From Actinomycetales bacterium (GTDB lineage: Bacteria; Actinomycetota; Actinomycetes; Actinomycetales; Dermatophilaceae): a stretch of DNA of 64,000 bases. The notes under the pieces were generated by a model. That model was given only the letters and a program-made list of their open reading frames with translations. It was not told where the DNA came from and searched no databases. The translations under genes were made by a program, and so were the position numbers. Positions within the stretch are counted from its first letter, which is position 1; each line of letters starts with the position of its first letter. Where the stretch lies: assembly GCA_038210185.1 (NCBI GenBank), contig JBBQWX010000002.1:10705-74704 (forward strand), read 5' to 3'. Shown piece by piece: positions 9,390 through 38,381 of this stretch.

Positions 9390-10760
9390 TCAGACCGTGG
9401 GCCGGGTCAGAGGAACCGGGTGACGAGGGCGCGCCCCGGCACCCTCGTTTCCTCGCTGTCCGATCCCGGATGCCGTCCGCCGCCGGCCGCCGCTGGGCGC
9501 CGACGCGCGCGGGTCGAGCTCGGCAGCGAGCTCGGCCAGAGCCGTCGTGAGCTCGGCCCTCGGAGCCACCTCGACGAGCGAGCGCCCGGCGAGCAGGGCC
9601 GCGTCGCACTCGTGCGGCGCCCACGGGAGGAAACGCACGGCATCCATGCCGGCGAACCGGGCCAGGACATCGGCGATGGCACGCTCGGGCCGGCGGCCCG
9701 CCACCGAGGCACGCACCTTGGTGACCACGACCAGGGGTCGCGGAGAGGGCAGCACGGCGACGTCCTGGACCGCGCGGACGAGGCGCTGCAACCCCACGGG
9801 GTCGGCGGCTCCGACCACGACGAGGTGGTCGGCCGCCTCGAGCGCGGTGAGGGTGGCGGCGTTGCGGCGTGGTGCGGCGGTGTCGTAGCTCAGCTCCTCG
9901 TCGTCCTCGACGGCGAAGCCGACGTCGACGACCACGTGGTCGACGACCCCTCGGGCCAGGCGCAGCACGTCCTCGACCGCCGCACTGCGCAGCTCGGGCC
10001 ACCGGTCGGCCCGCGGCAGGCCGGTGAGCACCCGCAGGCCGGGCACCACCTCGGGTGCGAGGCGGGCCAACCCCGGCATGTCGAGGGTGCCCTGCTCGGA
10101 GGCCCGGGCCGCCGCTGCCACCCCCGGCGCCTCGTCGACCAGACCCAGCACCTGCGCCACGCTCGCTCCCCAGGTGTCGAGGTCCACGAGCAGGGTGCGC
10201 ACCCCCGCGGCGGCCAGCGATGCAGCGAGGGTCACGGCGACGGTGGTGCGGCCGGGGGCGCCGGTGGGCCCCCAGACGACCGTGAGCGGGGTGAGGACCG
10301 GCGCCTCGTCGTGCTGCTCGTGGACAGCGTCACCTCCCGGCGCCGCGTGGTCGGCCGTGGACGTCGGAACCGTAGCGGGCGCGTCGTTCGAGGGCAGCGC
10401 CGTGGTGCTGGCACCGGCGAGCGCCACGAGGGCGGTCGCCACGTGGGGCGCGGCATCGCCCGGGCGCAGGATCGTCGCGACCCCGAGCTGCCGCAGGCGG
10501 CGCTCGCCCTCGTCGTCACCGGTCGCCACGAGGCCGGCCACCCGCACGCCGTGACCCGCGAGGTGCCGCAGCGCGTCGCGGTCGAGGCCGCGCAGGTCCG
10601 GGGAGACCACCGCCACCCGGGCGACCCCGACCGCCCCCGCCGAGAGCAGCTCGGCGACGTCGGCGCAGCGCCGTACCAGCGTGACGTCGGGCGCGTCCTC
10701 GAGCACCCGCACGAACTGGGACTCCAGGCCATGGGTCACCGCGGTGAGGACGCTCGTCAC
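9390..10760 (-). CDS. Receiver-like + MinD/ParA/CpaE-like P-loop protein
   Basis: N-terminal receiver-like region, deviant Walker A GPTGAPGRTT, LLVDLD, VVVDVG; GTGA overlap with the SAF gene. Confidence 0.8.
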   Translation of the reverse strand: MTSVLTAVTHGLESQFVRVLEDAPDVTLVRRCADVAELLSAGAVGVARVAVVSPDLRGLDRDALRHLAGHGVRVAGLVATGDDEGERRLRQLGVATILRPGDAAPHVATALVALAGASTTALPSNDAPATVPTSTADHAAPGGDAVHEQHDEAPVLTPLTVVWGPTGAPGRTTVAVTLAASLAAAGVRTLLVDLDTWGASVAQVLGLVDEAPGVAAAARASEQGTLDMPGLARLAPEVVPGLRVLTGLPRADRWPELRSAAVEDVLRLARGVVDHVVVDVGFAVEDDEELSYDTAAPRRNAATLTALEAADHLVVVGAADPVGLQRLVRAVQDVAVLPSPRPLVVVTKVRASVAGRRPERAIADVLARFAGMDAVRFLPWAPHECDAALLAGRSLVEVAPRAELTTALAELAAELDPRASAPSGGRRRTASGIGQRGNEGAGARPRHPVPLTRPTV

Positions 10761-11428
10761 GACGAGGCCGCCGACACTCCACCAGGCACCGGAACCAGGG
10801 TGATCCGCGCGCCGACGTCGACGTCGGCGACCACGTCTCGCACCGCGTCGCGCGGCACCATGACGTGCACCGCCCTGGTCTGGGCGGACCCGCCGAGCAC
10901 GCCGTCCTCGTCGGCCACCCGCACGACCGAGACCGCCTCGAGGGCCCGCTCGGGGCCGGCGTAGCTGGGCAGGCCCACGGCAGTGCCCTCCTTCGGGCGG
11001 TTGACGTAGACGTCGACGACCGACCCGGCCGAGATGGCTGCCGCCGAGGTGGCGTCGACGAGCAGCGCGACCTGCTGCACGTCGACCGCCGCACCCGAGC
11101 CCACCCCGGACAGCGGGATGAGCTCGCCGGGGCGCATCGCGCGCAGCGACCACGTGTCGTCGGCCAGCGGCCGATCGGCGGGGAGGTAGCCCGCCGCTCC
11201 GTCGCCGAGCAGCACGTCGACCCGCACCACGTCGGCCTCGGTGACCCGCTGGCCGGGAGCGAGCACGCTCTTCGCGGCGTACACCGGCACCCGGTCGTCG
11301 GCGCGGGCGACGACGAGGGACCCCAGGACGGTGGAGACGAGCACGAGGAGCAGCCCGACGAGCAGCCTCGAGTCGCGCCAGGACGGGGCACGCAGCCGTG
11401 ACGCGGTGGGTGCGGGTAGGTCGCTCAT
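10757..11428 (-). CDS. SAF-domain (CpaB/FlgA-like) membrane protein
   Basis: RLRAPSWRDSRLLVG, one TM segment, VYAA...LAPG.RVT..D..V.V, R...GELIP. Confidence 0.8.
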   Translation of the reverse strand: MSDLPAPTASRLRAPSWRDSRLLVGLLLVLVSTVLGSLVVARADDRVPVYAAKSVLAPGQRVTEADVVRVDVLLGDGAAGYLPADRPLADDTWSLRAMRPGELIPLSGVGSGAAVDVQQVALLVDATSAAAISAGSVVDVYVNRPKEGTAVGLPSYAGPERALEAVSVVRVADEDGVLGGSAQTRAVHVMVPRDAVRDVVADVDVGARITLVPVPGGVSAASS

Positions 11429-11436
11429 GCCGCCCG

Positions 11437-11524
11437 ATTCTGGTCGAGGATGCCGTCCTCCGCCTCCGGAGGAGCGCCGGCTGTGGACGACCGAGGCCGG
11501 CGCCACGCCTGTGGATGGCACACT
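11437..11524. promoter_or_regulatory. Divergent promoter with two CTGTGGA(C/T) boxes
   Basis: -10 CAGAAT (minus strand, 11437-11442); boxes at 11481-11488 and 11509-11516; -10 CACACT (11519-11524) six nt before the HTH gene GTG. Confidence 0.6.
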
Positions 11525-11530
11525 GACGAC

Positions 11531-11773
11531 GTGGCCCGCCGCTTCATCCCGCTCACCGAGGTGTCCGAGATCCTCGACGTCTCCGCGGCCCAGGCGTACG
11601 CCCTCGTGCGAAGCGGCGAGCTGCCGGCGATCAAGGTGGGTGGGCGCGGCCAGTGGCGCGTCGAGACCGTCGAGCTCGAGGCCTACATCCAGCGGATGTA
11701 CGCCGAGACCCGCGACCTGGTCACGACCAGGTCGGAACCCGGCGACCAGGACGCCAAGGGAGCCGTCGGCTGA
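11531..11773 (+). CDS. Excisionase/BldC-like HTH_17 DNA-binding protein
   Basis: FIPLTEVSEILDVS..QAYALVRSGELPAIKVGGRGQWRV. Confidence 0.88.
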   Translation: MARRFIPLTEVSEILDVSAAQAYALVRSGELPAIKVGGRGQWRVETVELEAYIQRMYAETRDLVTTRSEPGDQDAKGAVG

Positions 11774-11918
11774 CCCGTGCCGTCGGTGTGGCCCGGCCGG
11801 GGGTGGAGACGCGACCCCGAGGTGGCGAGGATCGGGCGGTGCCTGGTTCCAGGGCCGGCTCCGACCGATAGGCACCCCTCGTCGGCCGTCCGCGCCCGGC
11901 TCTGGGCGCCTCGCGCCG

Positions 11919-12467
11919 TCAGCGTCGCGACTCGACCGTGACGACGGCCGCGAAGGGCACGGTGGCCACGGCCCGGACGTTCTCCCGTCGCCGAGGCAGT
12001 CCTTCCAGGTGCTCGGCGAGGTCGAGGTGGTCGGCCCCCACCGCGTCGATCGTCCCCAGCAGGCGCGGCCCACCCCCGGTCAGCGTCAACACCACGGTGG
12101 CCCGGTCACGGGACAGCGCGCGCAGCGCGTAGCCGAGTCCGAACCGGCGGGCGCTCCGTGCCGGCGCCGACTGCGGCGCGAGCGACCGCAACGTCACCAC
12201 GCGGGCCAACGGCACGAGCACTTCGTGACCGTCGCCGGCCCGCAGCAGCACCCAGTCCTCACCGAGGTCCGCGAGCTCCCCCTCGACCTGCCGCTCGCCG
12301 ACCAGGGCGAGCCGAAGGGGCGTACCGAGTGCCGCGGCGAGGCGTGCCGTGAGGGTGACCAGCGCCCGTTCCCGCCGGGTGCGCTCGGCCACCTCGTCGT
12401 CGCGCTCCCGGCGCAGCTCGGCGGCCAGCTGGCCCTCGAGGTCAGCGAAGAGCCCTTCCCACCTCAT
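11919..12467 (-). CDS. Conserved actinobacterial hypothetical protein
   Basis: MRWEGLFADLEGQ...G.DW...GTIDAVGADHLDLAEH; TAGGCT -10 six nt before ATG. Confidence 0.75.
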   Translation of the reverse strand: MRWEGLFADLEGQLAAELRRERDDEVAERTRRERALVTLTARLAAALGTPLRLALVGERQVEGELADLGEDWVLLRAGDGHEVLVPLARVVTLRSLAPQSAPARSARRFGLGYALRALSRDRATVVLTLTGGGPRLLGTIDAVGADHLDLAEHLEGLPRRRENVRAVATVPFAAVVTVESRR

Positions 12468-12559
12468 GTCCACAGCCTAGGCCGCTCTGGTTGCCGGCGT
12501 CGGGGCCACGGTCTAGGGTCAAACACATGCAAACGCCATCAAACGCCATCCAACGTGCC
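12468..12559 (+). promoter_or_regulatory. LysM promoter: GTCCACAG box, TAGGGT -10, and four 10-bp-period direct repeats
   Basis: GTCCACAG 12468-12475; TAGGGT 12514-12519; CAAACACATG/CAAACGCCAT/CAAACGCCAT/CCAACGTGCC from 12520. Confidence 0.6.
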
Positions 12560-13351
12560 CGACTGGTCGGGTGTGCAGGCCTGGTCCTGGGCGGCGTGGT
12601 GCTGCTCGTCCCGTTGTTGTGGCGGATCACGGACCAGGTCGGCGCCGCAGCCGGCGCGGGGGCTCCCGTGCGGCCCGACGAAGCGCTGTCGGCGGTCGTG
12701 GCCGCGGCTGCACTGGTGGGGGTCACGTGGCTGGCGGGAAGCGTCCTGCTCGAGGTGGTCAGCCTCGTGCCCGGCACCCTGGGCCGCAGCGCTGCTCGCG
12801 CCGCCGAGGTGGTCACCCCGCGGCTGGTCCGCCGCGCGGCCGGGGCCCTGCTCGGCATCGGGGTCGTCGCCGGCCTGGCTCCGGGAGCGTCGGTGGCCGC
12901 GCCGACGGTCTCGGTGGCGGCTGACGTGGCCACCGTCCGCCCGCCCCTGCCCGACCCCGGCCTCACCCCCCTCCCCGACCCCGGATGGGCGCCCGGCACG
13001 GGCACGGCGCCGGCGACCGCACCGGAACGACGGCCCGCCCCGGTGTCGTCGCCGGCTCCCGCCCCGGGATGGGTGCCCACCCGGCCCGCCGTCCGTACCC
13101 ATCCCGACGTGCGCGTGCTCAGCCCCTCACCCCGCTCGGGCCGGGCCGCACCCCCGACCGAGGTGGTCGTGCGTCGCGGGGACTCCCTGTGGTCCATCGC
13201 CGCACGACACCTCGGGCTGGACGCCTCGGAGGCCGAGGTCGCGCGCGCGTGGCCTGCCTGGTTCGACGCCAACCGCGAGGTCGTGGGCGACGACCCCGAC
13301 CTCCTGCTGCCCGGCCAGGTGCTGCATCCTCCCCCGAGGTCGGCGGCATGA
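12527..13351 (+). CDS. Membrane-anchored LysM peptidoglycan-binding protein
   Basis: N-terminal TM segments, Pro-rich linker, C-terminal VVVRRGDSLWSIA...NR.VVG.DPDLLLPGQVL. Confidence 0.9.
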   Translation: MQTPSNAIQRARLVGCAGLVLGGVVLLVPLLWRITDQVGAAAGAGAPVRPDEALSAVVAAAALVGVTWLAGSVLLEVVSLVPGTLGRSAARAAEVVTPRLVRRAAGALLGIGVVAGLAPGASVAAPTVSVAADVATVRPPLPDPGLTPLPDPGWAPGTGTAPATAPERRPAPVSSPAPAPGWVPTRPAVRTHPDVRVLSPSPRSGRAAPPTEVVVRRGDSLWSIAARHLGLDASEAEVARAWPAWFDANREVVGDDPDLLLPGQVLHPPPRSAA

Positions 13352-13893
13352 GCGGCGGCGTCCTGCACGTCGCGCCCCCCAGCCGGCCGTTGCCGCCGCC
13401 GATCTCCCTCGAAGAGGCCATTCGGGAGTCCAGGCAGGCGACTGCGGCCCGCGAGGGCCACGCCGCCGGCTACGTGCAGGACACGCTGGCCGTCGACTTC
13501 GCCGCCGCGTCCGACGAGCAGTACTTCGGCCCCCAGCGCACGCTGAGCAACGCCCTCCCCGACCCCGGCGTGTGGGCCGGCCGCATCACCCTGGCCCTGC
13601 TCGAGGTGATGATGGGCGTGCGCCCGGCTCCCCAGGTGCTGCGCTGGACCGCTCCTGAGGTGTATGCCGTCGTGGCCCGGCGCAGCGCGCTGGTCGCCCG
13701 CCGGGTGGCGGAGGGCCGCGCGCCACGCACCCGGCCACGGCTCCACGTCGTGCGCGTGCGCGTCTGCGAGCCCGCCGACGGGGTGGCCGAGGCCGCGGTC
13801 GTGGTTCGCGACGGGCCGCGGGTGCGCGCTGTCGCCGTGCGGCTCGTCGGGCAGGACGGCAAGTGGCGGGTCAGTGCCCTGCAGGTGGGCTGA
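13348..13893 (+). CDS. Rv3235-family (DUF6459) protein
   Basis: LLEVMMG.RP..Q..RW, VRVCEPADGVAEA, RAVAVRL...W; ATGA coupling to the LysM gene. Confidence 0.85.
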   Translation: MSGGVLHVAPPSRPLPPPISLEEAIRESRQATAAREGHAAGYVQDTLAVDFAAASDEQYFGPQRTLSNALPDPGVWAGRITLALLEVMMGVRPAPQVLRWTAPEVYAVVARRSALVARRVAEGRAPRTRPRLHVVRVRVCEPADGVAEAAVVVRDGPRVRAVAVRLVGQDGKWRVSALQVG

Positions 13894-15532
13894 GCGACGA
13901 GTCGGTTCCCGGCAAGGGCGCCGGCTCGGGCTCCGGGCTGCCCGGTTGTCGGGTCGGCAGGCCCCCGGAGGTGAAGAAGGCGACCAGTGCCAGCAGCGCC
14001 AGCACCGCCAGTGCGCTGCGCAGCCCGGACAGCCGCGACTGCGTGTTCTCCTCGACGACCGCCGTCGCCACGGCCGGGTCGACGTTCGCGTCCGCGAGCG
14101 CCGTCTCCAGCTGCGCGTCCGACACGAACGGGATGCCGCTGGCCAGCTCCACCTGGGCCTGCGAGGTCACCGAGGGTGGGATCGCCTCGTTGTCGGCGAT
14201 ACCGGTGAAGAACGACGACGACAGGGCCGAGATGAGCACGGCGCCCGCCAGCGCCGTACCGATCGAGGCGCCCAGGTTGGTGAAGGTGTTCTGGATGCCC
14301 CCCACTTCGCCACTCTGCTCGTCGGGCACCGCCGAAACGGTGACCGCCCCGAGCTGCGAGGCGAGCGCCCCGATACCCAGACCGGCCAGGAGCAGCGGGC
14401 CGGTGACGATCTCCGGCCCGACACCGACCTCCAGGGCGGCCAGCAGCGCCACGATTCCGGCGAGCAGCGCGAGGAAGCCCAGTCGCACCACCCGGCGGGG
14501 CGAGGCGTGGGGAAAGACCTTGGGCACCCCCACGGCGGCGAGCAACAGGGTCACCGAGAGGGGCATGACCCGCAGGCCGGTGTCGATGGCGCTGAGACCG
14601 AGCGCCACCGAGAGGTAGAGCGGCACGCAGAAGAACAGCCCCGCCTGGAGCAGGAACTGGAAGAAGAAGGCGATCAGGCCCTTCTGCAGCGGCGGGATCC
14701 GCAAGATGGCGGGGTCGAGCAGGGCCGAGCGACCCTCGGCGATCCGGCGCTGCTCCCATCCCATGAAGGCCCACAGCACCAGCGCGCCGCCGAGCACGAA
14801 CCACACCACGGGCGACAGTCCCAGCCACGAGGGGGCGTTCGGCTTGGGGTTGACGAAACCCCACGTGCCCGCCCGCAGGATGCCGAACACGACCAGCCCG
14901 AGACCCGACGCCGACAGCACCGTGCCGACGAGGTCGAGCGCAGCGTCGGGGTCGGCCTCTGCGTCGGCCATCCGTCGCGCGAGCACGAGGATGATCGCCA
15001 CGATCACCACCTCACCGGCGAAGACCCAGCGCCACGACGCGTAGGTCGTCAGCACTCCACCGATCAGCGGGCCCGCGGCGACCGCGATCGCACCGGATGC
15101 AGCGACCAGCCCGTAGGCCCGGGGCCGCTGCGGGGCATCGAAGTTCGTGGCGACGAGCGCGACGATCGCCGGCATGATCAACGCCGCCCCGATGCCCTCG
15201 AGCAGCGACCAGCCGAGGATGAGCACGGGCAGGCTGGGCGCCAGCGCGGTCGTGAAGGACCCGGCTCCGTAGATGACGCAGCCGATGGAGAACGCCCGCT
15301 TGCGGCCCAGGATGCCGCCGATCTTGCCTCCGGTGATCATCAGCGAGGCCATGACCAGGGTGTAGAGCGTGATCGCGGTCTGGATGCCGGTCACGTCGGT
15401 ACCGACGTCCTTGGCCACGGTGGCGATCGAGACGTTCATGACCGAGCTGTCCAGGGTCATCAGGAACTGGGCGGCCGCCAGGGTGGTCAGGACGGTGGCG
15501 CCCGCGGTGCGGGCGGCGGTCTGCGTGCTCAT
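13871..15532 (-). CDS. MFS transporter (DHA2/EmrB-like)
   Basis: FLMTLDSSVMNVS, GGKIGGILGRKR motif A, ~14 TM segments. Confidence 0.92.
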   Translation of the reverse strand: MSTQTAARTAGATVLTTLAAAQFLMTLDSSVMNVSIATVAKDVGTDVTGIQTAITLYTLVMASLMITGGKIGGILGRKRAFSIGCVIYGAGSFTTALAPSLPVLILGWSLLEGIGAALIMPAIVALVATNFDAPQRPRAYGLVAASGAIAVAAGPLIGGVLTTYASWRWVFAGEVVIVAIILVLARRMADAEADPDAALDLVGTVLSASGLGLVVFGILRAGTWGFVNPKPNAPSWLGLSPVVWFVLGGALVLWAFMGWEQRRIAEGRSALLDPAILRIPPLQKGLIAFFFQFLLQAGLFFCVPLYLSVALGLSAIDTGLRVMPLSVTLLLAAVGVPKVFPHASPRRVVRLGFLALLAGIVALLAALEVGVGPEIVTGPLLLAGLGIGALASQLGAVTVSAVPDEQSGEVGGIQNTFTNLGASIGTALAGAVLISALSSSFFTGIADNEAIPPSVTSQAQVELASGIPFVSDAQLETALADANVDPAVATAVVEENTQSRLSGLRSALAVLALLALVAFFTSGGLPTRQPGSPEPEPAPLPGTDSSLSPPAGH

Positions 15533-16290
15533 GGGGTCGGCCTGACGTCGGGACGGTTGGGACGGTCGGGGACGTCGGGGACGTCGGGGACGTCGGGATG
15601 GTCGGGGACGTCGGGATGGTCGGGGACGTCGGGATGGTCGGGGACGTCGGGATGGTCGGGGACGTCGGGGACGTCGTCAAGGTCCGTGCGCCGGTAGCGG
15701 CGCCGCACGCCGGCCGGCGCGTCCGGCTGGTTCACCCCGACGACCGGCGAACCCGGCGCCGCCGGCTCCATGGCCATCGGTGCGTCGCCGAGGAGGGTCT
15801 TGCGTTGGCTGGCACCCGGGCGCGGCAGCCAGTCGTAGACCACCCGGGTCCAGAGGGCGACGTCCTGCACCGACCGGCGCTCGGGGCTGACGATGCACCA
15901 GAAGAGACCGATGGGGAAGAAGACACAGAACAGCGCTCGCACCATCGCGCGCAGCGGGCCGAGCCGTCGTCCCCTGTGCCCCACCACCCGCAGCCCCATG
16001 ACGTGGTCGCCGTAGCTCCGGCCGACCAGCCACCACCCCAGGGCGAAGTACCACGTGGCGAGCACCAGGGCGGTGGTCAGGCTCGCCAGCAGGCTCGCGT
16101 CGGGCCACTGAAAGGTGCGCGGGTCGAGCAGGAACGTGAACGCGACCAGACCGAGGTAGCAGCCACCCAGCAGCACCCCCACGACCAGGGCGTCGATCGT
16201 GTTGGCCACGATCCGGGTCACCAGGCCGGCCGGCTCCCCCTGGTACGGCCGGGCCTCGCGCGGGATGGCGGAGATCTCCGGCCCCGTCAC
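15529..16290 (-). CDS. RDD-family membrane protein with C-terminal (PDVPDH)n tail
   Basis: AGLVTRIVANTID, G.SYG..VMGLRVV, R..QD....TRVVYD; coupled to both neighbours. Confidence 0.85.
   Translation of the reverse strand: MTGPEISAIPREARPYQGEPAGLVTRIVANTIDALVVGVLLGGCYLGLVAFTFLLDPRTFQWPDASLLASLTTALVLATWYFALGWWLVGRSYGDHVMGLRVVGHRGRRLGPLRAMVRALFCVFFPIGLFWCIVSPERRSVQDVALWTRVVYDWLPRPGASQRKTLLGDAPMAMEPAAPGSPVVGVNQPDAPAGVRRRYRRTDLDDVPDVPDHPDVPDHPDVPDHPDVPDHPDVPDVPDVPDRPNRPDVRPTP
15544..15676. repeat. In-frame 9-bp/18-bp tandem repeat (VNTR)
   Basis: Four exact GGGATGGTCGGGGACGTC units at 15595-15666, flanked by further 9-bp units. Confidence 0.95.
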
Positions 16291-17207
16291 GGGGTGCCCT
16301 CGGGCAAGGGTGGCCGCCGCCGCCGGAACAGCGCACGGTCGACGGCACGGGTGAGGGCGTCGTCGGCGGTGATGCCGGTCATGCGCACACCACGCACCGT
16401 CTCGGAGGCCATCGACCCGGTGGAGTCGCGGATGATGGCCGGCAGGTCGATGACCTCGAGCACCTCCTCGACGATGCCGATGACGTCGATCCGGTCGATG
16501 ACGGCGTCGAGGTCGGCGCGCGCCACCACGGCATCCACGTCGAGCCTGGCCGCCACCGCATCCAGGTCGACCCGGTCGAGCACCGCGTCGATGTCCACCC
16601 GCGCGACCGCCGCGTCGATGTCCACCCGCGCGACCGCCGCGTCGAGGTCGGCCCGCGCCACCACGGCATCCACGTCGAGCCTGGCCGCCACCGCATCCAG
16701 GTCGACCCGGTCGAGGATGGCCTCGATGTCCACTCGCGTGGTCACCGCATCCAGGTCGACCCGCAAGACCGCACCGTCGAGGTCCGCCCGGGCCATCGCC
16801 GCATCGAGGTCGACGGTCGAGACGAGCTGGTCCAGGTCGACGTTCTCCTCGACCAGCCGGGTGAGGTCGAGCCGCTCGACGACTGCAGCAACCAGCGCGG
16901 GCACCCAGGCGTCGAGCAGCACCACGGTCCGGCGGCGCAGCTCCCTACGGTCGGCGCCACCCCTGCGGGCCAGGTCGGCGGCGACCGTGGCGGGATGCAG
17001 ACGCGTGGGAAGCAGGGGCGGCCGCCACAGCAGCCGGGTCACCGGCGCGGCCACTCGGTGCACCGTGCGCACCGTGCGCACGGCGACGACCGCGGCCCCC
17101 AACGTCACGCCGGCCACCCCGAGGGCGACGTCGACTGCCAGCCGTGCCTCGGGCCCCAGCTGGGGCGCCGCGACCGGTCGTCCTGACGTCGTCAGCTCCT
17201 TGGACAC
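16287..17207 (-). CDS. Hypothetical protein with ~14 nine-residue repeats (xDLDAVVAR)
   Basis: Repeats visible in the translation; ~135-bp internal duplication (about 16505-16579 vs 16640-16714). Start uncertain. Confidence 0.8.
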   Translation of the reverse strand: MSKELTTSGRPVAAPQLGPEARLAVDVALGVAGVTLGAAVVAVRTVRTVHRVAAPVTRLLWRPPLLPTRLHPATVAADLARRGGADRRELRRRTVVLLDAWVPALVAAVVERLDLTRLVEENVDLDQLVSTVDLDAAMARADLDGAVLRVDLDAVTTRVDIEAILDRVDLDAVAARLDVDAVVARADLDAAVARVDIDAAVARVDIDAVLDRVDLDAVAARLDVDAVVARADLDAVIDRIDVIGIVEEVLEVIDLPAIIRDSTGSMASETVRGVRMTGITADDALTRAVDRALFRRRRPPLPEGTP

Positions 17208-17290
17208 CCGCGTCCCTGTCTGTCTCGGAGGCCTCCTGTCCCGGCACGGTACCGGTCGCGGGTCCGACGCGTCAGGGGCTGCCAGCAAAC

Positions 17291-17327
17291 AGGCCCGGGC
17301 TCACCCCATGCGGGTGAGCCCGGGCCT
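17291..17327 (-). terminator. Stem-loop downstream of secA
   Basis: AGGCCCGGGCTCACCC-CATGC-GGGTGAGCCCGGGCCT, 16-bp perfect stem. Confidence 0.85.
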
Positions 17328-17356
17328 CTCGGCTCAGTGCGGCGGCGTGAGCGGCG

Positions 17357-20257
<2,901 letters not shown>

Positions 20258-20434
20258 GAGTGGAACTCCCTTGGGGTGGCTGCATGGCGGTCGCTCGACC
20301 GGACCTGCCTAGGGTAGTCGAGCCCCGAGCGCCGCACGGAACCGACGGTCGGCCGGCAGGGGGGCACTCCACGGGCAACGCGGCACGCGGCGGCCCGAGT
20401 TCCCCACCACCGCGACAGGTGGTTGGGTGGAGGA

Positions 20435-21577
20435 ATGACCGGTTCGCCGTTCCCGGGCTGCGTGCCCGAGCTCACCGACGGGGTGGTGCTGCTGCGCGCG
20501 CACCGCCTCGACGACGCGCAGCGGATCGTCGAACAGTCCAACGACCCGGAGTCGATGCGCTGGACGACCGTGCCGCGCCCCTACGGCCTCGACGACGCGC
20601 GCGAGTTCCTGGCGACCATCGAGAGCGCGTGGAACAGCCCGGACGGGCTGCGGTACTGGGCGGTCACCGACGCATCGGACCCGCAGGGCCGCTACCTCGG
20701 CACGATCGACCTGCGCCCGCGGGGCGGCGGGGTCGGCGAGGTCGGGTTCGGGCTGCACCCGCAGGGGCGGGGGTCCGGGTTCATGGCGGGCGCGCTGAGG
20801 CTCCTGGCCCGCTGGTGGTTCGGCCAGGGCGGCGTGCGGGTGCACTGGTTGGCCATTCGCGGCAACTTCCCGTCGTGGCGGGTGGCGTGGTCGTGCGGTT
20901 TCACCCAGCACGGCACCACCCCCCAGGTGCACCCCGACCCCGACGACGCCGGGGCCCCGCCGCTGGACGTGTGGCGGGCCAGCCTGGGGGCCGACGACGT
21001 CCTGGAGCCGCACAGCCCATGGGACGACGTGCCGGTGCTGGAGGTGGCCGAGCACGGTATCCGGCTGCGGCCGTGGCGCGACGGCGACCTCGCCTCGCTC
21101 GACCCGCGCGACCAGCCCGATCACCACATGCCGGCGCGCGGCGTGCTCGACGCCGACACCTTCCCCGAGTGGCTGCTGATCCGTCGCGAGCAGATGTCGG
21201 TCGGCCGCGTCCTCAGCTGGTGCGTCGCCGACGCCACGACGGATGCCGCGCTGGGCGAGGTGCTCGTGTTCGTCACCGAGGGCACCCTCGACGACGACAC
21301 CGCCGAGCTGGGCTACCAGGTGGTGCCCAGCGCTCGGCGCCGCGGTGTGGCGACCACCGGGGCCCGCCGCCTCGTGGCGCACGCCCTCACCCCGCGCTCC
21401 GAGGGCGGGCTGGGGATGCGCCGGCTCGTCGCCCAGACCGCGGACGACAACGTGGCGAGCAACGCGGTGCTCGACCGCCTGGGGTTCACCATCTGGGGGC
21501 AGGAGACCGCGGCCGACGTGCTGCCGGACGGTCGGGCCGTCGACGCCCTGCACTGGGAGCTGCTCCGCGAGGGCTGA
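20435..21577 (+). CDS. Tandem RimJ/RimL-type GNAT acetyltransferase
   Basis: Two GNAT halves (GFGLHPQGRGSG; LGYQVVPSARRRG); GGAGG RBS before ATG 20435. Confidence 0.9.
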   Translation: MTGSPFPGCVPELTDGVVLLRAHRLDDAQRIVEQSNDPESMRWTTVPRPYGLDDAREFLATIESAWNSPDGLRYWAVTDASDPQGRYLGTIDLRPRGGGVGEVGFGLHPQGRGSGFMAGALRLLARWWFGQGGVRVHWLAIRGNFPSWRVAWSCGFTQHGTTPQVHPDPDDAGAPPLDVWRASLGADDVLEPHSPWDDVPVLEVAEHGIRLRPWRDGDLASLDPRDQPDHHMPARGVLDADTFPEWLLIRREQMSVGRVLSWCVADATTDAALGEVLVFVTEGTLDDDTAELGYQVVPSARRRGVATTGARRLVAHALTPRSEGGLGMRRLVAQTADDNVASNAVLDRLGFTIWGQETAADVLPDGRAVDALHWELLREG

Positions 21578-21620
21578 GCCGACGGCACCGGCCGGGCACC
21601 CGCCCGGCACCGTCACGGCA

Positions 21621-21726
21621 TCGACCACCGGGTCGACGCTGGGCACGATCGACCACTAGGTCGAAGTTGCCCCGACCAGCGGCAACCGAACCGGGACAAG
21701 ATCGACCTAGTGGTCGATCTTGTCCC
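21621..21726. repeat. Cluster of three REP-like TCGACC-N4-GGTCGA palindromes
   Basis: Palindromes at 21621-21636, 21649-21664 and 21702-21717; the last extends to a perfect 15-bp stem (21693-21726). Confidence 0.85.
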
Positions 21727-22921
21727 AGTTGACCGTTCGGAGGTCGAGCCAGGCCGCCATCAGGGCCAGCTCCTCGTCGAGCTCGCGCCGGTCTACGGGG
21801 CCGCCCTGCCCCGGTTCCCACGTGCACCGGCGCACCAGCAGCACCCCGGCGCCCCGGTCGGCCTTGAGGTCGAGCCGGGCGACGAGGTGCTCACCGAGGA
21901 GGAACGGCAGCACGTAGTAGCCGTGCACGCGCTGGGCCTGCGGCACGTAGATCTCCAGCCGGAAGTCGAACCCGAAGAGGGCCCGCGTGCGGTCTCGTTG
22001 CCAGATGAGCGAGTCGAACGGCGAGAGCAGGGCCCGCGCCTCGACCCGCCGGGGCCGGCGGGCGTCCCGGTGCAGGTACCCCGGGCGGTGCCAGCCCTCG
22101 ACCGTCGCCGGCAGCAGGATGCCGTCGCGCACCAGGCCGGCGATCGCCGGCCGCGCCTGGTCGGGCGAGAGCCGGAAGTAGTCGCGCAGGCACTGCTCGG
22201 ACCCCACCCCGTGGGCCCGGGCGGAGATCTCGACGAGCCGTCGAAAGGCCGCTTCCTCGGTCGGTCGGGACGCGGCGTCGAGCGCCTGCTCGCGCAGGGC
22301 CGGAGGAAGCACGCGTGCCGGCAGCGCATAACGACGCTCGAACTGGGGCGTGCGGCCCGAGCTCGACACCTCGCCCGACCAGAACAGGTGCTCGAGAGCG
22401 TTCTTGACGAGCGACCAGTTCCAGCCCCACTCGTCCCGCTGCCGGGGCAGGTCGTGGGCCAGGGCGACCTCGACCTCCCGGCTGGTCAGTGGTCCACGTC
22501 GAGCGACCTCGTCCAGCACGGCCTCGACCACCCCGGGGTGCTTGCGCGCGACGCTCCGCATGCCGCCCCAGGCGTCGGACCTCGCCCGGCGCATCCGGAA
22601 GTCGAGCAGCGGCCACGTCGACGGCGCGACGAGAGACGCCTCGTGTGCCCAGTACTCCACGACCCGGCGCGGGGCGGCGTCTCGGGCACGGTCGAGCAGG
22701 CGCCGGTCGTAGGGGCCGAGCCGTGAGTAGAACGGCAGGTAGTGGCTGCGCACCACGACGTTGACGCTGTCGATCTGCACGACACCCACGGTGTCGACGA
22801 CGCGCTGGACGTCACGCGTGCCCGGTTCAACCGGTCGTGGTCGCGCGAGGCCCTGGGCCGCGAGGGCGATCCGGCGGGCGGCCCCCGCCGAGAGGTGCAC
22901 GCCGACCGGCGCGTCAGTCAT
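21707..22921 (-). CDS. YcaQ/AlkZ-family winged-helix DNA glycosylase (crosslink repair)
   Basis: [14 protein letters not shown] (QxD motif), [24 protein letters not shown]...RVHGYYVLP; ATG overlaps the RR stop. Confidence 0.9.
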
Positions 22922-23630
22922 CCGTCGGGAGCAGGTGCTGCTGGTGCGCGTAGACGGCCGCCTCCACCCGCGAGTGCAGCTGCAGCTTCTCGAGGATGTT
23001 GCGGACGTGGTTCTTGACGGTGTTCTCGGAGATGACGAGCTGGCCGGCGATCTCGCGGTTCGCCCGCCCCCGAGCGACGAGCCGCAGCACCTCGACCTCG
23101 CGGTCGGTGAGCTGCGGGGCACTCCCGGTGACCGGCTCGGGCTCCTGGCTGAGCCGGGTGAACTCCGCCAGCAGGGTCGCGGCCATGCCCGGCGGGATGA
23201 TCGCCTGGCCGTCGTTGACCCTGCGGATCGCCGCGGCCACCTCCTCGCCGGGCAGGTCCTTGAGCAGGTACCCACTGGCGCCGGCCTTGATCGCCTCGAA
23301 CAGGTCGGACTCGTCGTCGGACATGGTCAGCATGAGGATCCGTGTCGACGGGACGACCTCGCGAACGCGGCGGCAGGCCTCGATGCCCCCGAGACCCGGC
23401 ATCCGCACGTCCATGAGCACGACGTCCGGCATCACCCTGCTGCACACGTCGACCGCGACCAAGCCGTTGCTCGCCTCGCCGACGACGAGCGCGGAGCCGT
23501 CGAGCTCGACCACCACCTGCATGCCGCGACGATAGAGGTCATGGTCGTCGACGATCACGACACGAATGGGCGACGGCACGTCAGACGGCACGTCAGCCGG
23601 TCCGCCACCGTTCACGTCGTCACCCCTCAC
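22914..23630 (-). CDS. Orphan NarL/LuxR response regulator (syntenic with the Streptomyces orphan RR OrrA)
   Basis: [29 protein letters not shown]...[13 protein letters not shown]; no adjacent kinase. The OrrA link rests on synteny recall. Confidence 0.9.
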
Positions 23631-23683
23631 GTGGCAATCGTGGCAGGTCTCTCAGGCGAAGGTCGGGCACAGTGCGAGATCTC

Positions 23684-24343
23684 TCAGGAAGCGGCAATCT
23701 CGACACCGGCTCCCTCGGCCCGCTCCTCGCCGTCGGTCGCGGAGCCGTCGAGGTCGAGATGCAGCACGCCGTAGCTCCAGCCGTGGCGGCGGTAGACGAC
23801 GCTGGCGCGGTCGGTGTCGATGTCGTGGAAGAGGTAGAAGTCGTGGCCGACGAGCTCCATCTCGCTCAGTGCGTCGGAGAGCGTCATCGGAGCGGAGCGG
23901 TGCACCTTCTCGCGAACCTCCACCGGGGAGCCGACGAACGGGTCGCCCTCGTCGGCGCCGGGGGTGACCTGGCCACCCTCGTCGGGGGTGACGATGCGGG
24001 CCGTCGCCCTCGCGACGGACTCGGGGGTACGTCGTCCGCGGTGGACCTGTCGCCGGTCCTTCTGGCGCCTGAGCCGCTCCATGAGCTTGTCGATCGCCAG
24101 GTCGAGGGCGGCGTACTTGTCCTCGACGCACGCCTCGGCCCGCACCACGGGCCCCTTGGCGTAACAGGTGATCTCGACCTTGTCACAGACCTCCGCCTGG
24201 CGACGGTTCGGCTCGTGACTCACCAGCACCTCGACCCGCCGGGTGCGCGGCTCGAGCTGGGTGATCTTCTCGAGCTTGTCCTCGATGTGCGCCCGGAAGC
24301 GGTCGGAGACGGTCAGGTGCCGTCCGGTGACGACGATGTCCAC
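23684..24343 (-). CDS. hpf: Ribosome hibernation promoting factor (long HPF/RaiA)
   Basis: MDIVVTGRH...DKYAALDLA...MELVGHDFYLF...VVYRR. Confidence 0.95.
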   Translation of the reverse strand: MDIVVTGRHLTVSDRFRAHIEDKLEKITQLEPRTRRVEVLVSHEPNRRQAEVCDKVEITCYAKGPVVRAEACVEDKYAALDLAIDKLMERLRRQKDRRQVHRGRRTPESVARATARIVTPDEGGQVTPGADEGDPFVGSPVEVREKVHRSAPMTLSDALSEMELVGHDFYLFHDIDTDRASVVYRRHGWSYGVLHLDLDGSATDGEERAEGAGVEIAAS

Positions 24344-24421
24344 GTGGTCCTCCTCGGTTTGGTGTTCTCGCTGCTCAGTGCCGAACCGGCGTCAGGGGCA
24401 CCACCTCCGGAGGATCGGGGC

Positions 24422-25234
24422 TCAGTACCTGACGCTAGTCGGAGGGCCGGTGGCCCACAATAGCGGGGCCGAGGTGTGGCGAGGGGTCGTGGAGCACGTG
24501 GCCGCGACCACGTGTGCGGCCCCGACGTCGCGCAGCGCACGGGCCCCCTCGATGAGGGTGGCACCGGTCGTGACGACGTCGTCGACGAGCACGCACGTGG
24601 CGCCACGGACCACCCCGCGCCACGGGGCCCCCACCGCCATCGCCCCCCTCAGGTTGGCGGCACGGGCCGCCCGGTCGAGGTGGGCCTGGTCGGCCACGCG
24701 GCGAACGTGGACCAGGGCAGGGACCACGGCCAGGCCACCCGTGGCCGGGCGCCCCCCGCCGACGGCCGCGGCAGCCCAGACGGCGAGGCCGAGAACCGGG
24801 TCGTCGCCCCGGCGCCGCAGCGAGGCCCTCGAGGTCGGGACCGGCACGACGAGCACCTCCTCGCGCAGCCGGAGGCGGCGGCGGAGCACCGGGTCACCGG
24901 CCACCGCCGCAGCCAGTGCCGTCGCCAGCGCAGCAGCCAGCACCGGTCGGAGGTCGCGACGCCCCTCGTCCTTGTAGGCGGTGACAGCATGCCGCAGCGC
25001 ACCCTCGAAGCGGGCGCCGGCCCAGCAGCACGGCATCCCGGGCGGCGCGGGCCGCGGCCCCACGGCATCGGAGGCGACCCCGTACGAGGACCGGCGCACG
25101 GCGTCGGCGCAGGCGCGGCACAACGGCCCCCCGGCACCGTGGCACGCGGCGCACCGTGCCGGCAGCACGAGGTCACCCGCCGCAGCCACCCCGCGCCGGC
25201 TCCTCGCCCACACCGTGCCCAGGACGCCAGCCAT
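24422..25234 (-). CDS. comF: ComF-family phosphoribosyltransferase-like protein
   Basis: CAAC...LCRAC zinc motif, YKDEGRR, RRRG, DQAHL....R..NL, LVDDVVTTGATL. Confidence 0.92.
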   Translation of the reverse strand: MAGVLGTVWARSRRGVAAAGDLVLPARCAACHGAGGPLCRACADAVRRSSYGVASDAVGPRPAPPGMPCCWAGARFEGALRHAVTAYKDEGRRDLRPVLAAALATALAAAVAGDPVLRRRLRLREEVLVVPVPTSRASLRRRGDDPVLGLAVWAAAAVGGGRPATGGLAVVPALVHVRRVADQAHLDRAARAANLRGAMAVGAPWRGVVRGATCVLVDDVVTTGATLIEGARALRDVGAAHVVAATCSTTPRHTSAPLLWATGPPTSVRY

Positions 25235-25240
25235 GGACAC

Positions 25241-25321
25241 AGGATGACCCGCACCCACGCGTGGACGCCGTGCCCCCTGCCGCGCTGTGGACGAGCATCG
25301 GGCGCAGGCGGGTCTGTGGAC
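25241..25321 (-). promoter_or_regulatory. comF promoter with two CTGTGGAC boxes
   Basis: -10 CATCCT (25241-25246) six nt before ATG; boxes at 25285-25292 and 25314-25321. Confidence 0.6.
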
Positions 25322-31862: not shown

Positions 31863-32771
31863 TCACAGGCCGCTGAAAGCCTCCATGATGCGGATGCCAC
31901 CGGGGCCGATGATGACGATGAACAGGGCCGGGAAGATGCACAGCAGCAGCGGGAACAGGATCTTGACGGTGACCTTCTGGGCCTTCTCCTCCGCCCGCTG
32001 ACGTCGCGCGATGCGCATCTCACTGGTCTGCTCGCGCAGCACCGCCGCGATCGGCAGACCCATCCGGTCCGCCTGCACGAGGGCGCTGACGAAGTTCTTG
32101 ACCTCCGGGGTCGAGACCCGCTCCCCCAGGGCGGCGAAGGCCTCGCCACGGGACTTGCCGATCTGCATCTCCGAGAGGACCCGCGCGAATTCGCCGCCGA
32201 TCGGACCGGTCACGGTCTTGGCGACCTGCATGATGGCCGCGTCGAACCCCTGGCCGGCCTGGACGCAGACGGTGAGCATGTCGAGCGCGTCGGCCAGGCC
32301 CTTGATCAGCTCCTGCTGACGCTTGGCGCCCAGGTTGTAGACCAACAGGTCCGGCAGGAAGAAGGCGGCGAGACCCGCACCGGCCGCCACCAGGAGCCCA
32401 CGCAACCCGAACCCGAGCAGCACGACGGCCACGAACGCCGCCAGCACCATCGCGATGGCCTTGGCCGCCATGATCCGTTCGAGGTTCCAGCCCGTGGGGT
32501 TGCCCGCCCGATCGAGCGAGCGGGCGATGCGGGCACCGGCTCCGCTCGGGGACAGCCGCACCCCCACCCGCCGCATGGCCTCGACGGCGGGTGCGAGCAG
32601 CCGGTCGCGGGCCGCGAGCTCGTTCTTCGCGACCGACCGCGACGTGGGCTGGTAGTTGAGCAGTTCGAGGGACCGGGCGACTCCGGAGGTCCCACTGGGC
32701 TTGCCGGTGCCCAGGAGCACCACGACGCCGGCCGCCAGCACGATGATCGTGAGTCCCAGGAAGAGCAGCAC
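31863..32771 (-). CDS. tadC: Tad pilus platform protein TadC
   Basis: LADALDMLTVCVQAG, EFARVL.E...G..R..A, QAD..G.PI...LR.Q, RAEEKAQK..VKILFP. Confidence 0.93.
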   Translation of the reverse strand: MLLFLGLTIIVLAAGVVVLLGTGKPSGTSGVARSLELLNYQPTSRSVAKNELAARDRLLAPAVEAMRRVGVRLSPSGAGARIARSLDRAGNPTGWNLERIMAAKAIAMVLAAFVAVVLLGFGLRGLLVAAGAGLAAFFLPDLLVYNLGAKRQQELIKGLADALDMLTVCVQAGQGFDAAIMQVAKTVTGPIGGEFARVLSEMQIGKSRGEAFAALGERVSTPEVKNFVSALVQADRMGLPIAAVLREQTSEMRIARRQRAEEKAQKVTVKILFPLLLCIFPALFIVIIGPGGIRIMEAFSGL

Positions 32772-32772
32772 C

Positions 32773-34743: not shown

Positions 34744-36110
34744 AGACGCGCTCTGAACAACGCGAGCGGCAGGTCGATGCCCAGGTCGCTGAGCTCCTTG
34801 GTGAACTTCGGTCGCAGCCCCGTGCTGACCAGCTGGCCACGGAAACGGCCGTTGTCGTCGCGGCCGGCCGAGAAGTCGAAGGTGAACAGGTCCTGCATGG
34901 TGACGATGTCACCTTCCATGCCGACCACCTCGGTGATGGCGGTGATCCGCCGAGACCCGTCCTTGAGGCGGGCCTGCTGCACGACGAGGTCCAGCGCGCC
35001 GGTGACCTGCTCGCGGATGGCGCGCACGGGGAGGTTCACCCCCGCCATGAGCACCATCGTCTCGAGTCGGGCGAGTGAGTCGCGCGGGCTGTTCGCGTGC
35101 ACGGTCGTGATCGACCCGTCGTGACCGGTGTTCATCGCCTGGAGCATGTCGAGGGCGGCACCGTCACGGACCTCACCGACGACGATCCGGTCGGGGCGCA
35201 TGCGCAGCGAGTTCTTGACCAGGTCGCGGATGTCGATCTCGCCCCGTCCCTCGATGTTCGGCGGTCGCGACTCCAGGCGCAGCACGTGCTCCTGGTGCAG
35301 CTGCAGCTCGGCAGCGTCCTCGATCGTGATGATCCGCTCGTCGGCGGGGATGAAGGAGGAGATGACGTTGAGCGTCGTGGTCTTGCCCGAGCCGGTGCCG
35401 CCGGAGATGACGATGTTGCGACGACCGAGCACACAGGCCTTGAGGAAGTCGCGCACGGCCGGCGAGAACGTGCCGAACGCGATCAGGTCGGCGTCGTTGA
35501 ACGGGTCCTTGGAGAACTTGCGGATCGTGAGCATCGCGCCGTCGAGCGCGATCGGCGAGACGACGGCGTTGACCCGGGAGCCGTCGGGCAGTCGGGCGTC
35601 GACGAGCGGGCTCGCCTCGTCGACACGACGACCCACGCGCCCGACGATCTTGTCGATGACCCGACGCAGGTGCGCCTCGCTCGAGAACTGGGTCTCGACG
35701 GGGTAGAGCTTGCCGGCCCGCTCGACGTAGATCGAGTCCGGTCCGTTGACCATGATCTCGGTGATCTCCGCGTCACGCAGGAGGGGCTCGAGGGGCCCGT
35801 GGCCGAGGATCTCGTCCGACACCTCCTGCGCGATGCGGGTGCGGTCCGCGTGCGAGAGCGGGGTCTGCTCGGAGTCGATGGTGCTCTGCAGGGTCTGGCG
35901 CACCTGCGCTGCGAGCTCGGACTCGGGCAGGTGCGGGTCGTAGAGCCGGGGGCCCAGGCTCTCGATCAACGCCTGGTGCACGCGTTCCTTGACCTCGCCG
36001 AAGGGGTCGACCGTGCGTCGCTTGGTGGGGGAACCGGGCGGGCCGGTCGTGTCGCCGGCGGGTGCCGGTTGGGAACGCCGGGCACTGTCGAGTCGGTCAG
36101 CGAGACTCAT
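34740..36110 (-). CDS. cpaF: Tad secretion ATPase TadA/CpaF
   Basis: GGTGSGKTT, TIEDAAEL, LRMRPDRIVVGEVR, AMNTGHDG. Confidence 0.96.
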   Translation of the reverse strand: MSLADRLDSARRSQPAPAGDTTGPPGSPTKRRTVDPFGEVKERVHQALIESLGPRLYDPHLPESELAAQVRQTLQSTIDSEQTPLSHADRTRIAQEVSDEILGHGPLEPLLRDAEITEIMVNGPDSIYVERAGKLYPVETQFSSEAHLRRVIDKIVGRVGRRVDEASPLVDARLPDGSRVNAVVSPIALDGAMLTIRKFSKDPFNDADLIAFGTFSPAVRDFLKACVLGRRNIVISGGTGSGKTTTLNVISSFIPADERIITIEDAAELQLHQEHVLRLESRPPNIEGRGEIDIRDLVKNSLRMRPDRIVVGEVRDGAALDMLQAMNTGHDGSITTVHANSPRDSLARLETMVLMAGVNLPVRAIREQVTGALDLVVQQARLKDGSRRITAITEVVGMEGDIVTMQDLFTFDFSAGRDDNGRFRGQLVSTGLRPKFTKELSDLGIDLPLALFRARL

Positions 36111-37285: not shown

Positions 37286-37287
37286 GC

Positions 37288-38055: not shown

Positions 38056-38107
38056 CACAATTCCTTCAACAATGGTTGTTCGAGTGGTGCGCAGGCGCTG
38101 TGCACAG

Positions 38108-38278: not shown

Positions 38279-38381
38279 GAGGGTCTCCTAGCTGTCCAGT
38301 GCGAGGACGCTGAGTAGTGCCGAACGGAGTTTGGCGCCGACTGCGCGGGTGTCCCTGCAGCCGGCGCCCACGAGATAGCCC

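Follow-up and report, generated by a model that had tools for sequence, protein, structure and literature searches.

The 64-kb stretch of DNA that we analyzed, referred to here as the window (C2:10705-74704), belongs to a Phycicoccus-like genome of the family Dermatophilaceae/Intrasporangiaceae, whose named relatives are Phycicoccus and Pedococcus, and it carries a short sequence, GTCCACAG, upstream of three promoters. These promoters precede an operon for a SAF-like protein and a CpaE-like ATPase, a comF-like gene, and an operon for a LysM-domain protein and a DUF6459 protein (Table 1). The initial annotation had assigned each promoter a box and a -10 element exactly 38 nt apart, had placed second boxes at the SAF and comF promoters, and had described a 10-mer, CTGTGGACGA, common to these two; we found every element at its position, with the spacing as described. 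The source assembly, G000, is a metagenome-assembled genome of 4.63 Mb in 293 contigs, with 71% GC and 92% completeness. Genes were called genome-wide with a purpose-built caller based on GC content at third codon positions (GC3), and protein identities were taken from matches to Pfam and NCBIfam hidden Markov models.

Table 1. Boxes, core promoter elements and genes around the three promoters of the window (PWM, position weight matrix score; aa, amino acids).
Feature	Position	Strand	Remarks
Operon: SAF-like 223-aa gene (10757-11428) and CpaE/Ssd-like ParA-type ATPase gene (9390-10760)	9390..11428	-	
-10-like CAGAAT, SAF operon	11437..11442	-	38 nt after proximal box, 8 nt before ATG 11428
Proximal box, SAF-like/CpaE-like operon promoter, gGTCGTCCACAGcc	11481..11488	-	Exact match; PWM 19.5
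Distal box, SAF promoter, ATCCACAG	11509..11516	-	One mismatch; 28 bp above proximal box; PWM 15.2
HTH_17 (excisionase/BldC-type) gene (11531-11773) with -10-like CACACT (11519-11524)	11519..11773	+	Apparently leaderless, GTG 11531
182-aa gene (ATG 12467) with -10-like TAGGCT (12474-12479)	11919..12479	-	Divergent from LysM
Single box, LysM-DUF6459 operon promoter	12468..12475	+	Exact core; weak flanks (PWM <10), no partner box
LysM core promoter: PafBC-type -26 variant GTCGGGG (12499-12505), N8, -10 TAGGGT (12514-12519)	12499..12519	+	
LysM-domain protein gene (12527-13351) and DUF6459/Rv3235-like protein gene (13348-13893)	12527..13893	+	Pfam LysM, DUF6459
comF-like gene	24422..25234	-	Double zinc ribbon and phosphoribosyltransferase; Pfam Pribosyltran, DZR_2
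-10-like CATCCT, comF	25241..25246	-	38 nt after proximal box, 6 nt before ATG 25234
Degenerate third box-like element cGTCCACg, comF -35 region	25260..25267	-	About 26 bp downstream of proximal box
Proximal box, comF promoter	25285..25292	-	Exact; PWM 16.7
Distal box, comF promoter	25314..25321	-	Exact; 29 bp upstream; 3 nt after lpqB stop codon

The comF-like product matches the ComF/GntX models, but below their cut-offs, and the ATPase matches CbiA/ParA and, again below the cut-off, CpaE_hom_Actino. For the 223-aa protein, neither Pfam nor NCBIfam gave a match at E<0.01, and BLASTP showed no similarity to the true SAF paralogue on C46; only gene order and a short PVxxAxxxLxxGxxVTxADV stretch make it SAF-like.

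Within the window, the number of GTCCACAG copies was not significant (7 seen against 3.6 expected, with 7 of 100 shuffles reaching 7), and we therefore tested the pattern genome-wide and in relatives. Across the genome, 74 of the 186 copies are noncoding, compared to 16% intergenic DNA (p=2e-14), and same-strand pairs of copies show a single sharp spacing peak at 29 bp. Ten exact pairs of the 8-mer lie 28 to 30 bp apart (9 at 29 bp, 1 at 30 bp) where 0.011 would be expected (p~1e-26), and the 7-mer TCCACAG forms 15 same-strand pairs at 29 bp. A position weight matrix trained on 42 boxes taken from box pairs gave the consensus (G/C)GT(C/T)GTCCACAG(G/C), with 18 pairs at 29 bp and 6 at 30 bp; TCC.CA is present in all of the training boxes and TCCACAG in 40 of the 42.

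The distance from a box to [C/T]ANNNT-N5-8-ATG/GTG peaks at 37-38 nt, with an echo from the distal box at 66-67 nt, and at least 12 promoters have their ATG 49-52 nt beyond the proximal box. The module, which places two direct boxes 29 bp apart at about 23 promoters, runs from a distal box through a 21-nt spacer to a proximal box, and then through 37-38 nt without a -35 element to a weak -10 of the form [C/T]ANNNT, mostly CANNNT, with a usually leaderless ATG 6-8 nt further on. Box centers would accordingly fall near -54 and -83. Thus, the spacing of exactly 38 nt seen at the three window promoters is the rule for a whole promoter class. Between loci only the 12-bp boxes are common, while the spacers are unrelated.

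Orthologous promoters, a comparison that the initial annotation had proposed, retain both motif and spacing. In 14 comF orthologues from the same genus, column identity reaches 96% in the proximal and 98% in the distal box, as opposed to 55-63% in the spacers and flanks, and neither the 29-bp spacing nor the distance to the ATG changes, with CATCGT, CACCGT or CAGGCT at the -10 position. Several comF orthologues carry GGC(A/G)TCC(A/G/C) at the position of the third, box-like element, which is weak evidence. Boxes also stand before comF in four other families (L030, L031, L033 and L034; L-numbers denote loci of relatives). At the SAF promoter, both boxes are kept in L001, L002 and L004, the distal one as ATCCACAG, with a rewritten spacer between them, and L003 has the proximal box only; the flanks of the proximal box are divergent in all four of these loci. 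Relatives carry CA(G/C)AAT or GACGAT at the position of the SAF -10, and in more distant relatives the boxes of the SAF promoter are rearranged or inverted.

We scored the module in other genomes by exact GTCCACAG-N19-23-GTCCACAG pairs, using the reversed pattern as a control. Exact pairs occur in all 24 congeners (2-16 in each, with about zero for the reversed pattern), in 119 of the 301 genomes scored in the order and 76 of the 201 scored in the class, with almost none for the control in either set. Its occurrence is patchy: the module abounds in the home family and in a number of others, and in the order and class scan it was absent from Micrococcaceae-, Microbacteriaceae-, Bifidobacteriaceae-, Streptomyces- and Mycobacterium-like families (inferred labels). 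Each lineage combines its own tight spacing (27-31 bp) with its own mid-spacer element, namely GGATGCCG in this genus and, in two other families, CGATGCAC (f19) and cGTCCCACC (f9). In another genus of the same family (G045), pairs precede ssb, comF, a cpaE-like gene, DUF4192, comEA, an M23 peptidase gene, yraN and a small SSB gene. We conclude from these sequence comparisons that the boxes are genuine regulatory sites, conserved and arranged as a fixed pair.

Two of the G045 promoters, those of comF and the M23 peptidase gene (L052 and L059), carry three boxes each, and at the latter a box plus its 21-nt spacer forms an exact 29-bp tandem duplication, which suggests that modules grow by duplication of whole units. 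In the window itself, two exact GTCCACAG copies lie antisense inside secA, 321 bp apart (17814-17821 and 18135-18142; PWM 18.1 and 14.1); these are most likely chance matches in coding sequence.

The genes behind the modules form a coherent set. An enrichment at comEA, comEC, dprA and tad genes had been proposed as a check, and we found the same module at the same distance upstream of such genes. Box pairs precede the DNA-uptake genes comEA-comEC, comF and yraN-comM (dprA would lie off the contig end), and they precede pilus loci, including a cpaE-like-tadA-tadB-tadC operon, an operon of a DUF4244 flp-like pilin gene with tadE, and another tadA-like gene that lies about 10 kb ahead of the window. 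SAF-type genes are represented by the SAF-like gene of the window, with its CpaE partner, and by the paralogue on C46. Boxes are also found at genes for recombination and replication, namely recA, a full-length ssb, a small SSB-like gene, priA and a uvrD-like helicase gene (single box), and box pairs precede nrdR and genes for an M23 peptidase, an EEP nuclease, a WXG-like 95-aa protein, a DUF4192 protein, a SprT-like protein, several DUF222-HNH endonucleases and several AbiEi/DUF559-like proteins. Pfam confirmed ComEA (SLBB and HHH_3), ComEC, YraN, ComM, TadA (T2SSE), the DUF4244 pilin and SAF among the uptake and pilus proteins, and M23, DUF4192, SSB (twice), PriA, SprT and DUF222 among the others; RecA was read from sequence. 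In this actinobacterium, the genes for DNA uptake and recombination are nearly all preceded by modules. By a rough hypergeometric estimate, 23 pairs would reach at least 10 of about 12 a priori competence operons with p~2e-20. A similar list of candidates has come from transcriptomics in Bifidobacterium, including Tad, comEA-comEC, dprA-comM-yraN, an ssb and a WXG100 gene, and deletion of the Tad, the comEA-comEC or the dprA-comM-yraN cluster abolishes transformation there (PMC13660472).

We consider it likely that the GTCCACAG boxes are upstream activator sites of a conserved DNA-uptake and recombination competence regulon. The initial annotation had suggested a competence/Tad regulon in which comF, the SAF/CpaE pair and the LysM operon answer to a single factor, and this idea gains support, in a much enlarged form, from the modules at com and Tad promoters and from their conservation. 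The regulon is wider than first claimed, since it takes in recombination, replication-restart and DNA-damage genes, and it extends beyond this genome. In the mechanism that we propose, a sequence-specific protein would occupy both boxes and would recruit or stabilize RNA polymerase at otherwise poor promoters. This would jointly switch on comEA-comEC, comF, yraN-comM(-dprA), the Tad/Flp pilus genes and the SAF-like/CpaE pair, together with the M23 peptidase gene, the LysM operon, recA, ssb and priA. We infer activation, and likewise leaderless start sites, from the layout: on positional grounds, an upstream activator fits sites at about -54 and -83 combined with weak -10 elements and no -35.

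Several points weigh against this interpretation. The word activator draws only on position and on weak core promoters, and the genome is metagenome-assembled. Micrococcaceae-like genomes, the family of Micrococcus luteus, have only single boxes at the SAF locus and no genome-wide pairs. The set also holds AbiEi/DUF559-like, DUF222-HNH and DUF4192 genes and nrdR, which have no obvious transformation role, and it may therefore be better called a wider DNA-stress or DNA-processing regulon. Finally, the canonical flp-cpaB-cpaE-cpaF-tadB-tadC operon of the window (31863-38561), which adjoins a LuxR-type two-component pair, carries no GTCCACAG boxes. Separate regulation of this pilus is probable: boxes are present at the genome's other Tad loci (C6 15.3-20.4 kb; C2 1-884), and this difference suggests two functionally separate pilus systems.

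The SAF locus has a counterpart in M. luteus. By gene order, the HTH_17 protein corresponds to Mlut_14660, the SAF-like protein to Mlut_14650 and the CpaE-like protein to Mlut_14640, and the arrangement is kept across the order. In an ethyl methanesulfonate mutagenesis screen for altered comEA/EC-lacZ expression, almost every up-mutant mapped to one 550-bp region, which holds Mlut_14660 (HTH_17, probably essential), the divergent Mlut_14650 (SAF/RcpC-CpaB-like) and Mlut_14640 (CpaE) (PMC8467076). Deletion of Mlut_14650 lowers transformation 10^4-fold, the two divergent transcription units overlap, and the authors propose reciprocal expression (PMC8467076). Published M. luteus nucleotide changes include G1607081A (13-M89), which reduces transformation 100- to 1000-fold, and G1607117A. 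The window's HTH_17 gene has its -10 (CACACT) 2 nt beyond the end of the distal SAF box, and the -10/discriminator region of the 182-aa gene (TAGGCT-N6-ATG, minus strand) is overlapped by the LysM box. The switch that had been suggested for these two divergent promoters therefore holds at the level of sequence: occupancy of boxes that cover the HTH_17 and 182-aa core promoters would repress those genes while activating SAF-CpaE and LysM-DUF6459. A perfect palindrome, CCTCCGGAGG (11463-11472), the core of CTCCGG(A/T)GGCG, lies between the SAF proximal box and its -10, in the -35 region, and is conserved in L001-L004 and L009. We rejected it as a second motif of the whole regulon, as it is specific to this locus and missing from other box promoters, and it may be a second, locus-specific operator.

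The LysM promoter stands apart in having a single box, which is conserved in L001, L002 and L004 and has shifted in L003 to a distance of 28 nt from the -10, one helical turn less. Its core promoter resembles the PafBC-dependent RecA-NDp type, and in L002 and L004 it has the canonical form, TGTCGGTG-N8-TA(G/C)GGT; the cell-wall operon is thus predicted to be DNA-damage responsive. A -26 element (TGTCRGTG-N8-TAnnnT) also lies downstream of the boxes at recA, SprT, DUF222-HNH, C13 and C17, with the variant at LysM, and it is degenerate at comEA and absent at comF, SAF, cpaE, DUF4192 and M23. We asked whether the boxes could be part of this element and rejected the idea: of about 20 RecA-NDp promoters in the genome, only about 7 are also boxed and about 13 are not, which makes the boxes a separate module independent of PafBC. 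The placement of one module atop the other at recA, SprT, DUF222-HNH and probably LysM suggests that competence and DNA-damage inputs converge at these promoters.

The leaderless start of the LysM gene is uncertain, given that the ATG is conserved in 4 of 6 relatives and the N-terminal 44 residues do not align. Directly after the -10 (12520-12559) lie three to four A-rich 10-bp direct repeats (CAAACacatg CAAACGCCAT CAAACGCCAT CCAAC), conserved at the DNA level across the family. Translated, they read MQTxSNxIx, with A-ending codons that are very unusual at a genome GC3 above 90%. The CAAAC repeats proved unique to the LysM locus, so we rejected them as a genome-wide motif; they may be an operator (possibly a BldC-type HTH_17 site) or a leaderless-translation element. 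The divergent 182-aa gene had no Pfam or NCBIfam match and is syntenic in 9 of 9 relatives.

Among the other boxed genes, at least seven paralogous DUF222-HNH endonuclease genes occur in G000, similar to the mycobacterial REP13E12 family (C152 2025, C242 2972, C36 18783, C53 7813, C17 3063, C56 and C178). Five of them have boxes in the standard orientation and several also have the RecA-NDp -26 element, and the copies on C56 and C178 each carry just one box, in inverted orientation and about 10-11 nt upstream of the -26 element. The box pair 70 nt before nrdR is a weaker one (C29 33512-33560); it would tie the module to ribonucleotide reductase control. In many actinobacteria, lexA is divergent from nrdR.

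As binders of the boxes, the initial annotation had named DnaA, MtrA, the HTH_17 protein and an orphan response regulator; to these we add a dedicated competence regulator, so far unrecognized, whose site resembles a DnaA box. We give this last proposal slightly less than an even chance, and hold it only tentatively when the residual is kept apart. A rigid two-site geometry at a fixed distance from the -10 is typical of a class-I-type activator, the spacer elements are family specific, and the module occurs in some families and not in others, whereas DnaA is universal. For Actinobacteria, no master regulator of competence is known (PMC8467076, PMC12849477, PMC13660472), which leaves room for such a factor. 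Yet no transcription factor gene stands consistently behind a box pair in G000 or G045, where a search for an autoregulated one returned only the HTH_17 overlap, nrdR and AbiEi-like winged helix-turn-helix proteins. A dedicated factor would also need the same optimum as DnaA across 11-12 bp, including the flanks; this would be a large coincidence unless mimicry had been selected. A regulator that mimics the DnaA box might bind oriC as well, linking competence to a halt in replication.

The resemblance to DnaA boxes is stronger than had been claimed, because it extends to the genome's own oriC boxes and their flanks. The box matches the DnaA 9-mer TT(G/A)TCCACA or the relaxed actinobacterial form (T/C)(T/C)(G/A/C)TCCACA and equals the actinobacterial box T(T/C)GTCCACA. 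Scored with the regulon matrix, the boxes of the dnaA-dnaN and dnaA-upstream regions on C94 reach 16.5-20.8, among the genome's highest values, and five of the best-scoring sites lie there with the same flanks, GTTGTCCACAGG; in 8 of 11 cases, a G follows the TCCACA core in the oriC region. The SAF-locus box takes the form TTATCCACAG, which is the DnaA consensus at low GC, in Micrococcaceae-like genomes of lower GC. Since the box is indistinguishable from the oriC boxes of the genome, DnaA or a mimic of it is favored. A second protein with DnaA domain IV was considered as the binder and rejected, as the 92%-complete genome has no such gene, which speaks for DnaA itself. The DnaA regulon of Escherichia coli likewise covers replication, repair and nucleotide genes (PMC11317965), and the regulon described here includes priA, ssb, recA and nrdR.

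It is possible, although we hold the idea with some doubt, that the binder is DnaA and that the operators make competence and recombination genes depend on the replication initiator's state (DnaA-ATP level or replication stress). Binding by E. coli DnaA in vivo is almost confined to double boxes 2-3 bp apart and is disrupted by altered spacing (PMC11317965), but the regulon boxes are 20-21 bp apart, with a strict, lineage-specific period of 27-31 bp. Most of them have a C at position 2 of the DnaA box (TCGTCCACA), and the lineage-specific mid-spacer elements hint at another partner. The module is, moreover, absent from Streptomyces-, Mycobacterium-, Micrococcaceae-like and several other families, although DnaA is universal. 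The oriC and dnaA-upstream regions (C94 8130-8520 and 10154-10184) hold at least 11 TCCACA boxes, including five pairs with the 10-12-bp period of the classical double DnaA box; pairs of this period occur at oriC/dnaA, on C187 and in two tandem arrays, and at no regulon promoter. Our literature search found no DnaA chromatin immunoprecipitation sequencing in Actinobacteria. With the same reserve, one may ask whether natural competence in a large share of the Actinomycetes has DnaA itself as its master activator, in which case medium-affinity DnaA box pairs, 29 bp apart at -54/-83, would switch on the pilus, ComEA/EC, ComF, DprA/ComM, RecA, SSB and PriA. Such an arrangement would couple DNA uptake and recombination directly to the status of replication, through a new DnaA binding mode and a new kind of regulon.

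The HTH_17 protein, as a repressor or dual regulator of com genes and of itself, is an unlikely binder. It is highly conserved (Pfam HTH_17 at 1e-12, TIGR01764; 70-94% identical in family relatives), and the distal SAF box lies over the core promoter of its gene, which looks like autoregulation. In M. luteus, missense changes in the orthologous Mlut_14660, which seems to be essential, raise comEA/EC promoter activity (PMC8467076). These genetics, however, suggest negative regulation, whereas an activator is what fixed sites at -54/-83 of weak promoters would suggest, and the HTH_17/SAF locus is also present in families without the genome-wide module. By analogy with BldC, which binds head-to-tail 9-bp repeats, AATTNNNN(C), in an AT-rich minor groove (PMC5859096), the operator would look different from GC-rich 12-mers with a 29-bp period; a better fit to a BldC-type site comes from the A-rich 10-bp repeats at the start of LysM.

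We regard MtrA, encoded three genes upstream of comF, as a very improbable binder. The box regulon includes cell-wall enzymes (M23 and LysM), and comF lies directly downstream of mtrA-mtrB-lpqB. An older footprint motif of Mycobacterium tuberculosis MtrA, GTCACAgcg, is superficially like GTCCACAGcg. Published MtrA motifs, on the other hand, are direct repeats of G-T-n-A-C-c with an 11-bp period (PMC5650626, PMC6265350), and the boxes do not match them, as GTCCAC has an extra base and no conserved partner half-site lies 11 bp away; MtrA is also universal in Actinobacteria, as opposed to the patchy module. No orphan response regulator could be tied to the boxes. Finally, the notion that the shared 8-mer is chance, a dispersed repeat or miniature inverted-repeat transposable element, or a mobile element without a regulatory role, to which the nonsignificant count in the window and the 112 of 186 genomic copies in coding DNA might lend themselves, deserves next to no credence in view of spacing peaks, intergenic enrichment and gene content at p values of 1e-14 to 1e-26, of reversed-pattern controls near zero in more than 500 genomes, and of copies and orthologues that conserve the boxes and not the spacers (about 60% identical even between orthologues), which rules out a repeat element.

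Whatever protein binds the boxes, the competence regulon that we propose would be defined by a cis-regulatory module that is new for Actinobacteria, as we found no description of it in the literature searched. Transformation in this phylum depends on Tad pili, ComEA/EC and DprA-ComM-YraN, as established in Micrococcus and recently in Bifidobacterium, and the corresponding papers report neither a cis-element nor a master regulator (PMC8467076, PMC12849477, PMC13660472). A full-text search for the GTCCACAG 8-mer returned only primer noise. A promoter module that marks the whole uptake machinery in hundreds of genomes offers a route to the master regulator of natural transformation in Actinobacteria, and it predicts which uncultured or genetically intractable members may be transformable. 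It also nominates new competence-associated genes, namely the SAF-like/CpaE pair, the M23 peptidase, LysM-DUF6459, DUF4192 and the small SSB-like protein. If the binder is DnaA or a mimic of it, DNA uptake would be linked to the control of replication initiation.

A functional parallel is ComK of Bacillus subtilis, whose K-boxes switch on the DNA-uptake machinery together with recA and ssb. ComK promoters carry two helically phased boxes upstream of the core promoter, in which the A4-N5-T4 AT-boxes lie 8, 18 or 31 bp apart, and we know of no ComK homologue in Actinobacteria. The two systems share the uptake machinery, recA and ssb as joint targets as well as two phased upstream boxes, although the sequences are unrelated: here, GC-rich direct repeats with a 29-bp period stand before leaderless promoters without a -35 element. 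If DnaA were the binder, there would also be a likeness to the CRP-S/Sxy(TfoX) system of Gammaproteobacteria, in which a general DNA-binding protein is re-used at special competence sites, although that protein belongs to another family and CRP-S is a single palindromic site at about -61 to -70. Compared to the PafBC/RecA-NDp promoters of mycobacteria (TGTCRGTG-N8-TAnnnT), the box promoters are similarly leaderless, without a -35 and, by our reading, activator dependent, and recA, DUF222-HNH (REP13E12-like) and SprT are overlapping targets; the difference is that the -26 element is separate from the boxes and that most box promoters have none.

DnaA-regulated promoters (dnaA, nrdAB, polA and purH of E. 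coli, and those of B. subtilis) likewise use the same sequence as the oriC boxes and include replication and repair genes among their targets, although the E. coli double boxes are 2-3 bp apart (PMC11317965), compared to 20-21 bp, a fixed -10 distance and competence genes here. A DnaA regulon of this competence kind is not described in the literature that we searched. The locus itself has a close relative in the M. luteus 'cluster 13', which differs in that its operon also carries a PAS histidine kinase, absent from the window operon, and in that the paper proposes transcriptional interference and defines no cis-element (PMC8467076). Its divergent arrangement is the same as that of the window (9390-11773), and it has been genetically shown to control comEA/EC expression and transformation (PMC8467076). 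The overlap of a box with the divergent promoter would give the reciprocal HTH_17/SAF expression proposed in M. luteus a concrete basis.

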